Below, piece by piece: positions 53,801-56,800 of a stretch of DNA of 64,000 nt. This DNA comes from Escherichia coli (GTDB lineage Bacteria > Pseudomonadota > Gammaproteobacteria > Enterobacterales > Enterobacteriaceae), in the NCBI RefSeq assembly GCF_016026235.1, contig NZ_CP065613.1. One strand, written 5' to 3'. Position numbers: made by a program. Within the stretch, counting starts at the first letter, position 1; every line of letters starts with the position of its first letter.

Positions 53801-56800
53801 TATCACCCCCAATGAAACAGAAGCTGGTTTACTGTCCGGCATAGACGTACACGATCTTGAATCAGCTAAACGAGCTGCAGAAGCTATCCACAATAAAGGG
53901 GTAAAAAACACGGTTATCACGCTCGGTAGCAAGGGCTCGCTCGCATTTGATGGCAAAAAATTCATTCATTCGCCAGCGTTTCCAGCGGTCGTTAAAAATA
54001 CGGCAGGAGCCGGGGATGCGTTTAACGGCTCTCTGGCATCAGGACTTGCGAAAGGAAAATCACTGGAATCAGCACTGTGTTATGCCAGCGCCTTTGCATC
54101 CCTAGCGGTGGAGACAAGCAATGCTTCCGACATGCCTGAACATGAATCTGTGATACATCGAATTCAGAGTATACATTATCAGCAAACTATTTTTACGCAT
54201 TAAGAAGGGACAGAGAATGAATAACACCAAAAAATCACTAAAAGTGCTCTTTATTGGGGAATCCTGGCATATTCATATGATTCATTCAAAAGGATATGAC
54301 AGTTTTACCTCAAGTAAATATGAAGAAGGTGCGACCTGGTTACTCCAGTGTCTGAAAAATAGTCAGGTAGATGTCACCTATATGCCAGCACATACGGTAC
54401 AAATTGCCTTCCCTGAAGATGTGGCACAGTTAGAACAATATGATGCCATCGTTATTAGTGATATTGGTAGTAATACTTTCCTGCTACAAAATGATACTTT
54501 TTATCAGCTTCGCATAAAACCAAACGCTCTCGAACTGATTAAAGAATATGTGAATAACGGTGGTGGGTTATTGATGATTGGCGGCTATCTCTCATTCATG
54601 GGAATTGAAGCAAAAGCCAATTATAAAAATACAGTTCTGGCTGATGTGCTCCCGGTTACGATGTTAGATGGTGACGATCGTGTCGAAAAACCAGAGGGTG
54701 TTATTGCACAGCCATCACAACCTGAACATCCAGTTATTAAAGGGTTCTCTGAATATCCTTTTTTCCTAGGTTATAACCGGGCGATCGCTAAAGAAAATGC
54801 TGAGGTGGTATTAACAATAAACAACGCTCCATTACTGGTCTTTGGTAACTATCACAACGGGAAAATAGCCTGCTTTATGAGTGACTGTTCACCGCACTGG
54901 GGTACACAGCAGTTTATGTCCTGGCCGTTCTATACCGCGTTGTGGGTAAATATACTGACTCATATTGCAAGATAATAATAATAATGGGGTAACTCCAGTT
55001 ACTCCATTTACTATAATAGAAGGATTGATGTATGAAAAAGAATAAGTACTCAACTCCCTTATGGATGCTTGCCACGATTCTTGCGGGTATGCTCTCCCCT
55101 ATGCAATCAGCGGTGAATGGTCAATTAGGTCACTGGTTACAGGATGGTAATGCATGCGCAGTTATCTCCTTTGCCAGTGGTTTAGTCGTGATGTTTTTTA
55201 TTATTATGGCGCGAAAAGAAACCCGGCAACAATTTGCGGCAATTCCTTCTCTGATTAAAAACCGAAAAGTTCCTCTCTGGAACTGGTTTGCCGGTCTCTG
55301 TGGAGCGATGGTGGTATTTTCTGAAGGCGCATCAGCCAGCGCACTCGGGGTCGCAACGTTTCAAACCGCACTGATCTCCGCGCTATTGCTGTCTGGTTTA
55401 CTTTGCGATCGCTTTGGTATCGGTGTCGACGAGAAAAAATACTTTACCCCTTATCGCATCATCGGTGCATTATTTGCGGTTATTGCTACGATTTTTGTTG
55501 TGTCACCTCAGTGGCATTCTACCTCTTTCATCTTACTTGCCATTCTTCCGTTCTTAGCTGGTTTGCTTGCAGGATGGCAGCCCGCTGGAAATGCAAAAGT
55601 AGCTGAAGCTACGGGATCCATGCTGGTTTCAATCACCTAGAATTTCATCGTTGGATTTTGTGTTTTAGGCACAGCGCTAGCTATTCGTGTCGCATTAGGG
55701 CACGTCACTGTTCAATTACCAGATGTCTGGTGGATGTATCTTGGCGGCCCGCTTGGACTAATGTCTATCGGTTTAATGGCCATTTTGGTCAGAGGTCTGG
55801 GGTTACTGATGCTGGGGGTTGCTTCAACGGCGGGCCAGTTACTGGGATCAGTATTGATTGACGTATTAATTCCATCGCTGGGCAATAGCGTTTATCTGGT
55901 CACGATCATCGGAACACTGTTTGCACTGGTCGGTGCAATTGTTACCACTATTCCGGAATACAGAACCTCGAAAACAATGAAGAAAATGGAGGTATAATCA
56001 TGAAAGATTATCTACAAACTGTGACGGGCCCCGTCGCCCGTGAAGATATGGGGCTAACACTTCCTCATGAACATCTGTTCAACGATCTTTCCTCTGTTGT
56101 GGATGCTCCTTGCTATCCTTTTTCACAACGGCTTGTTGATAAAAAAGTCACGGCAGAAATCCAGTGGGCATTAAAACACGATCCTTATTGCTGCGCTGAT
56201 AATATGGACCGCAAACCTATTGAAGATGTGATCTTCGAAATTAATAACTTTATCTCGCTCGGTGGTCGCACCATTGTTGATGCCACAGGGTCTGAGTCTA
56301 TCGGACGAGATGCGCAGGCATTACGAGAAGTCGCATTAAAAACAGGTCTGAATATTGTTGCTTCCTCCGGTCCCTACCTGGAAAAATTTGAAAGCCAGAG
56401 AATTCATAAAACGGTTGATGAACTGGCGACAACGATCGATAAAGAATTGAATCAAGGGATTGGCGATACGGATATTCGTGCCGGAATGATCGGTGAAATA
56501 GGTGTTTCACCGACATTTACCGAAGCCGAGCATAACAGCTTGCGGGCTGCCTCGCTGGCACAGATTAACAATCCTCATGTGGCGATGAATATTCACATGC
56601 CGGGCTGGCTTCGTCGCGGTGATGAAGTACTCGACATTGTGTTAGGTGAAATGGGCGTCTCGCCAAATAAAGTCTCTCTCGCACACTCGGATCCGTCAGG
56701 AAAAGACGTGGCGTATCAGCGGAAAATGCTTGATAGAGGTGTCTGGCTGGAATTCGACATGATTGGCCTAGACATTACCTTCCCGAAAGAGGGAATAGCG

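Follow-up and report, generated by a model that had tools for sequence, protein, structure and literature searches.

The DUF606 family of membrane transporters, listed in Pfam as DMT_YdcZ (PF04657) and represented in E. coli by YdcZ, contains fused members in which two antiparallel domains are carried by a single protein (Lolkema, Dobrowolski and Slotboom 2008, as cited in PMC3962082). Here, we describe a gene with the same tandem architecture that is interrupted inside its second domain. It lies at positions 55032..55997 of a 64,000-nucleotide (nt) stretch of Escherichia coli contig NZ_CP065613.1 (RefSeq assembly GCF_016026235.1), hereafter the window, and is very probably a loss-of-function nonsense allele: a pseudogene that is still polymorphic within the species.

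The amber allele itself is already known, since RefSeq and its Prokaryotic Genome Annotation Pipeline (PGAP) record the pseudogene, and it is a case of ordinary gene decay in an island rich in insertion sequences (IS). The closest described counterpart is the PGAP pseudogene CEQ27_RS30400 of O104:H4 strain FDAARGOS_349, whose DNA is 100% identical over 1201 nt and which shares the TAG, the coordinates and the operon. The gene does not differ from that entry; the window additionally has an ISSso6-like element of the IS110 family inserted about 112 nt before the operon. Other PGAP ‘internal stop’ examples with the same TAG are M4R35_RS09265 and QUS02_RS14250. Intact alleles of the same locus, length and frame (WP_000739816/17/18/23/25) carry TGG at codon 203 and encode a 321-residue ‘DMT family transporter’ in IAI39, ZH193, EPSSH018, TK3889, MEI005 and SCU-308. 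Like the classical amber alleles (lambda Sam7 and the T4 amber mutants, with their supE or supF hosts), the window gene has one UAG in an otherwise intact frame. Unlike them, it is a natural population polymorphism rather than a conditional-lethal laboratory allele, and no suppressor accompanies it in the window.

The interrupted transporter gene

The features of the gene are as follows.

55032..55997, plus strand: pseudogene of a DMT transporter of the YdcZ/DUF606 type with two fused domains (321 codons; two PF04657 domains; PGAP pseudogene for identical DNA)
55638..55640, plus strand: premature amber codon (codon 203), arising by a G-to-A transition at 55639 that turns TGG (Trp) into TAG
55508, plus strand: silent T at Pro159 (CCT versus CCG) that accompanies the amber allele in a table of single-nucleotide polymorphisms (SNPs)
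55734..55997, plus strand: residual 87-codon tail open reading frame (ORF), from Met235 to the end; not an independent gene

Translation of the window gives 321 codons and a terminal TAA, with one internal stop at codon 203. The TAG at 55638-55640 ends an ORF of 202 codons (55032..55640), and the 87-codon ORF at 55734..55997 continues in the identical frame after a 93-nt gap (55641-55733) that contains no stop. The preliminary description of one continuous frame of about 321 codons, broken by a single TAG, was therefore accurate in its coordinates, its frame and its gap. The chance that 118 random codons after the TAG would stay open is about (61/64)^118 = 0.004. That this is one broken gene and not a chance ORF follows from homology, because five intact E. 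coli alleles align through the TAG without gaps. The alleles of IAI39, ZH193, EPSSH018 and TK3889 are gap-free against the window over 966/966 nt and read TGG at codon 203 where the window reads TAG; MEI005 and SCU-308 also have G at 55639 in the SNP table. ZH193 is the closest intact allele and differs from the window at 3 of 966 nt: the amber codon itself, G versus T at 55508, and ACC versus AGC at codon 286.

A protein search returned 302 homologues; each full-length one is a single protein of about 315-340 residues. Identity is 93% in Citrobacter and Salmonella and 87% in Klebsiella; Pectobacterium, Proteus and Anaerobiospirillum also have full-length homologues, and the proteins of Bifidobacterium and several Lactobacillaceae reach 63-68%. 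Trp203, within the motif ATGSMLVSITWNFIVGF, is invariant in all 18 full-length homologues aligned (from enterobacteria, Bifidobacterium and Lactobacillaceae), down to 63% identity, and the block after it, WWMYLGGPLGL...ASTAGQL.GS, is nearly invariant in the same alignment. Outside E. coli, no homologue keeps a stop at position 203. The search also recovered a cluster of 202-residue proteins, with 685 member sequences, that is 99% identical to the N-terminal 202 residues; judging from this match, these are gene-finder calls of the amber fragment.

By its domain content, the intact product belongs to the DMT superfamily, as a YdcZ/DUF606 transporter with two fused domains. In the TGG allele, Pfam places two tandem PF04657 domains at residues 10-154 (E = 3.7e-30) and 169-303 (E = 1.3e-15). 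A hydropathy scan finds about 10 hydrophobic segments with lysine and arginine concentrated in alternate loops, a predicted topology that fits two DMT_YdcZ domains of five transmembrane (TM) segments each. No NCBIfam model matches the transporter or the GATase1-like protein encoded next to it, and a sequence search of the PDB with the transporter gave no relative, only one chance-level match (E = 0.34). The junction between the domains falls at about residues 155-168, and the TAG lies 34 residues inside domain 2, where the seventh hydrophobic segment starts. Truncation removes 118 residues, including the nearly invariant motifs and 101 of the 135 residues of the second Pfam domain. The locus has two sequence marks of a pseudogene, a stop where orthologues have a sense codon and the removal of conserved, presumably essential sequence.

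Distribution and origin of the amber allele

Of 5,426 complete E. coli genomes, 2,123 match a 1.2-kb query around the gene, many with 100% identity; O104:H4 outbreak strains are among them. Alleles were counted in the same genomes by exact 61-nt queries centred on codon 203, which allow no other SNP in the span. The locus was found in this way in 2,038 records, with TAG in 599, TGG in 1,428 and another sequence in 11, so that the amber allele accounts for about 29% of carriers. In each of the six TAG genomes that were inspected, PGAP marks the allele as a pseudogene (‘DMT family transporter; internal stop’).

The amber codon travels with the silent change at 55508. In the SNP table of 13 sequences, this position is T in 7/7 TAG sequences (the window and six genomes) and G in 6/6 TGG sequences, a linkage that fits a single mutation later spread by vertical descent and recombination. 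Because the mutation is common to 599 complete genomes and has a linked synonymous marker, it is lineage-wide rather than private. The preliminary suggestion of a recent nonsense mutation that inactivates the transporter therefore holds for the mutation and its likely effect (a TGG-to-TAG change at an invariant tryptophan, loss of the last four predicted TM helices, a PGAP pseudogene call), while the word ‘recent’ needs qualifying.

Likely consequences of truncation and alternative explanations

The proposed course of events starts with the G-to-A change at 55639, which converts the codon for the invariant Trp203 from TGG to the amber codon TAG. Translation would then stop at codon 203 and release a 202-residue product predicted to comprise domain 1 (TM1-5), TM6 and a loop. 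Since such a product lacks TM7-TM10, it should be unable to form the antiparallel two-domain fold and would be inactive or degraded. Termination would also leave 357 untranslated nt before the downstream gene, which encodes a phosphotriesterase (PTE)-like protein; Rho-dependent polarity could lower PTE expression, although the PTE gene keeps its own GGAGG ribosome-binding site.

Some points weigh against this account of a pseudogene. We infer the inactivity of the 202-residue product from its sequence, and the single origin is drawn from 13 sequences. In addition, the frame is otherwise undamaged in most carriers, many of which are 100% identical over 1.2 kb. An intact remaining frame would be expected for a young pseudogene in a low-diversity species, yet it would also be compatible with residual function.

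Two explanations raised in the preliminary description would leave the transporter functional. In one of these, a sequencing or base-call error hides a true TGG codon, and the window does differ from an intact allele by only one base here. The identical 61-nt TAG context in 599 independently assembled genomes excludes such an error, as do the many genomes that match the window at 100% over 1201 nt and the linked marker at 55508; the probability left to it is negligible. The other holds that the allele is amber-suppressible, so that a suppressor tRNA, or natural read-through of UAG, yields a useful full-length transporter. Low-level near-cognate read-through of UAG does occur in E. coli, and the remaining frame is intact. 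Among the nine tRNAs that ARAGORN predicts in the 64-kb window, however, none has a CUA anticodon. An exact-match query for supE (MG1655 glnV with its anticodon changed to CUA) found it in 155 of 5,423 records, and the 60 matches listed are all K-12 laboratory derivatives (C600, DH5alpha, DH1, J53, S17-1 and similar), while MG1655 itself lacks the operon at cobU. Suppression by supE would moreover place glutamine, not the invariant tryptophan, at codon 203, and homologues outside E. coli have no stop at this codon. The amber-suppressible reading finds no support, and there is only a very slim chance that a suppressor tRNA, such as a private one encoded outside the window, or read-through supplies a useful amount of full-length protein.

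A further explanation keeps the fragments functional, either as a half-transporter in which the 202-residue product acts alone as a dimer or as a split transporter in which it reassembles with an 87-residue product started at ATG 55734. The DUF606 family offers a precedent, since some of its members are homodimers, others heterodimers encoded by two genes and others fusions (Lolkema et al. 2008, as cited in PMC3962082), and the truncated product retains the whole of domain 1 (residues 10-154). The break, however, falls well inside domain 2 rather than at the junction, and residues 203-234, which hold the predicted TM7 and invariant motifs, are present in neither fragment. ATG 55734 (Met235) is the only canonical in-frame start (ATG, GTG or TTG) downstream of the TAG, and it has no properly spaced Shine-Dalgarno sequence, since the upstream GGTGG abuts the ATG. 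Restarts at the rare in-frame codons ATC 55647 and ATT 55683 were rejected, as neither has a spaced Shine-Dalgarno sequence. The N-terminal tail and the TM2-3 and TM4-5 loops of domain 1 together carry 13 lysine or arginine residues and the alternate loops none, on the predicted TM assignment. Under the positive-inside rule, this 13 versus 0 bias implies that domain 1 should insert in a single orientation, and a fixed orientation makes an antiparallel homodimer of the dual-topology kind unlikely. Orthologues encoded as two genes, the second with its own ribosome-binding site and start, were named in the preliminary description as what would speak against an interrupted gene; instead, every orthologue examined is one fused gene (Salmonella, Citrobacter, Klebsiella, Proteus, Bifidobacterium and Lactobacillaceae). 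A two-gene DUF606 heterodimer was rejected for the same reasons: the break is off the domain boundary, the second half has no spaced Shine-Dalgarno sequence and orthologues are not two adjacent genes. Overall, the chance of a functional split or half-transporter is slim. There is also an outside chance that the amber allele is adaptive, either as a loss of function or as a change of function brought about by the retained 202-residue fragment with domain 1 or by polarity on the PTE gene, and that it has risen to its present share of carriers because some lineages gain from losing this transporter. A loss-of-function allele that is still polymorphic remains by far the preferred explanation.

The operon and its decaying island

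The transporter gene stands third in an accessory operon of four genes, which encode a DeoR-PfkB kinase/regulator, a GATase1-like protein, the transporter and a PTE-like hydrolase. The other genes of the operon and the elements on either side of it are listed below.

about 51358-52876 (approximate BLAST breakpoints), minus strand: IS110-family (ISSso6-like) element with a transposase ORF at 51662-52798, inserted about 112 nt before the DeoR-PfkB gene
52989..54203, plus strand: DeoR-type helix-turn-helix (HTH) domain fused to a PfkB/ribokinase-like kinase, 404 residues, intact; first gene of the operon (ribokinase models at 92-387, AgaR HTH at 3-61)
54217..54975, plus strand: GATase1_like (PF07090) protein, 252 residues, intact; conserved neighbour of the transporter across phyla
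56000..57034, plus strand: phosphotriesterase-related (PTE/amidohydrolase) protein, 344 residues, intact; starts 2 nt after the transporter TAA
57178..57402, minus strand: gamma-glutamyltransferase (ggt) gene remnant, followed by a degraded ISL3 transposase; an intact 580-residue ggt stands at the equivalent place in Salmonella

The kinase scores just under the cut-offs of the ribokinase NCBIfam models, and Pfam assigns HTH_DeoR and PfkB to the Salmonella orthologue of this first gene. The PTE-like protein scores far under the NCBIfam cut-offs for Php, OPH and phospho-furanose lactonase, and the GGAGG of its gene lies at 55988-55992, inside the 3' end of the transporter gene. E. coli alleles differ by the presence or absence of ATA at 54972-54974, a 3-nt length polymorphism in a AATAATAAT run. 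The polymorphism spans the GATase stop codon, lies about 60 nt before the transporter start codon and does not follow TAG or TGG status.

Scans of 52600-57300 found 9 promoter-like sites, against 10.4 expected from shuffled sequence, and 8 terminator-like sites, against 4.2 +/- 1.9 by shuffle, about 2 standard deviations above expectation. A hairpin at 55716-55733, just upstream of ATG 55734, is weak, with only three GC pairs and a poor T-tract, and was not treated as meaningful; within the transporter gene, the scans gave no convincing site.

The gene order around the transporter is partly conserved in distant bacteria.

Salmonella: DeoR-PfkB, GATase1_like, transporter, PTE, then an intact 580-residue ggt
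Klebsiella: GATase1_like, transporter, PTE
Lentilactobacillus: LacI, GATase1_like, transporter, CBAH-family hydrolase
Bifidobacterium: LacI, GATase1_like, transporter, CBAH-family hydrolase

The GATase1_like (PF07090) gene and the fused double-YdcZ transporter gene that directly follows it form a conserved pair, at 54217-55997 in the window and at 5172-6996, 5061-6984, 5173-6966 and 5186-6972 in the comparison loci L012, L014, L018 and L019, respectively. The pair is accompanied by a PTE-like hydrolase in Salmonella and Klebsiella, and by a LacI regulator and a CBAH/Ntn-type hydrolase in Lentilactobacillus and Bifidobacterium. Between these phyla, identity of the transporter is 64-68%, an unusually high value. 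A literature search for this YdcZ-fusion subfamily, its operon or the GATase1_like-transporter module found nothing, and the operon goes unmentioned in a paper about the cobU island of strain CFT073. From the gene neighbours, we infer that the substrate is probably a sugar-derived or amide-containing small metabolite, and it is reasonable to guess that the operon serves the uptake and catabolism of such a metabolite.

In O104:H4, the order is cobT, cobS, cobU, IS4 and IS66 fragments, the PfkB kinase, glutamine amidotransferase, DMT transporter and phosphotriesterase-related protein, then a gamma-glutamyltransferase fragment and a degraded ISL3 transposase. The window has the same order beside cobUST, plus an insertion of about 1.5 kb and downstream IS2 and IS21 copies. 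In K-12 MG1655, the CP4-44 cryptic prophage follows cobU directly. Because the operon is lacking there, the locus is accessory, and the ‘island’ label given to it earlier was apt.

The IS110 junction is found in only two of the 5,426 complete genomes, FDAARGOS_943 and RMDEC465. The insertion is specific to the lineage of the window and may cut the operon off from its promoter. Relative to O104:H4, the window also has an IS2 transposase at 59479-60384 and IS21 istB/istA-like ORFs at 60519-61517 and 61291-62937, and these insertions (59479-62937) are added IS load in the same lineage. The IS110 insertion with its rare junction suggests that the window comes from an IS-rich lineage, possibly like enteroinvasive E. 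coli or Shigella.

Decay extends beyond the transporter. Downstream of the PTE gene, 57178-59064 holds the ggt fragment and the degraded ISL3 transposase, where the Salmonella locus (L019, 8048-9790) has an intact ggt; from this comparison, the island in E. coli resembles a shortened version of a longer stretch found intact in Salmonella. Among E. coli relatives, IAI39 has IS600 inside the PTE gene, and annotation reports frameshifts in WG5 (both GATase and transporter genes) and in AR_0015 (GATase gene), some of which may be assembly errors. FDAARGOS_943 has lost the GATase gene and the 5' end of the transporter gene in association with IS1, and at this locus (L020, 7944-9514) an IS1A copy stands in their place beside the rest of the amber-bearing transporter gene. 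This arrangement is a later decay stage of the same operon. The ggt remnant, the IS66, ISL3 and IS4 fragments, and the IS600 insertion, IS1-associated loss and frameshifts in relatives together indicate that the island is decaying.

Elsewhere in the window, a prophage occupies about 1-26200, with genes for the major head protein, portal, large terminase, HNH endonuclease, replication initiation, exonuclease and integrase (25155-26195), and abuts tRNA-Ser(CGA) at 26223-26312. It carries an array of four tRNAs on the minus strand at 11365-11674 (Met-Lys-Thr-Gly in transcription order). A 2,643-residue intimin/invasin-type inverse autotransporter adhesin (IatC/YeeJ-like) is encoded on the plus strand at 27742-35673, between tRNA-Asn genes.

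In a large share of E. coli, O104:H4 included, the operon has very probably lost its transporter, which is useful to know for annotation and for the curation of metabolic models. Were the allele adaptive after all, that would be a sign that the uncharacterised module of GATase1_like protein and YdcZ fusion, which is shared across phyla, has a physiological role. The natural TAG and TGG alleles offer a ready isogenic contrast for finding the substrate of the transporter and its GATase1-like module.
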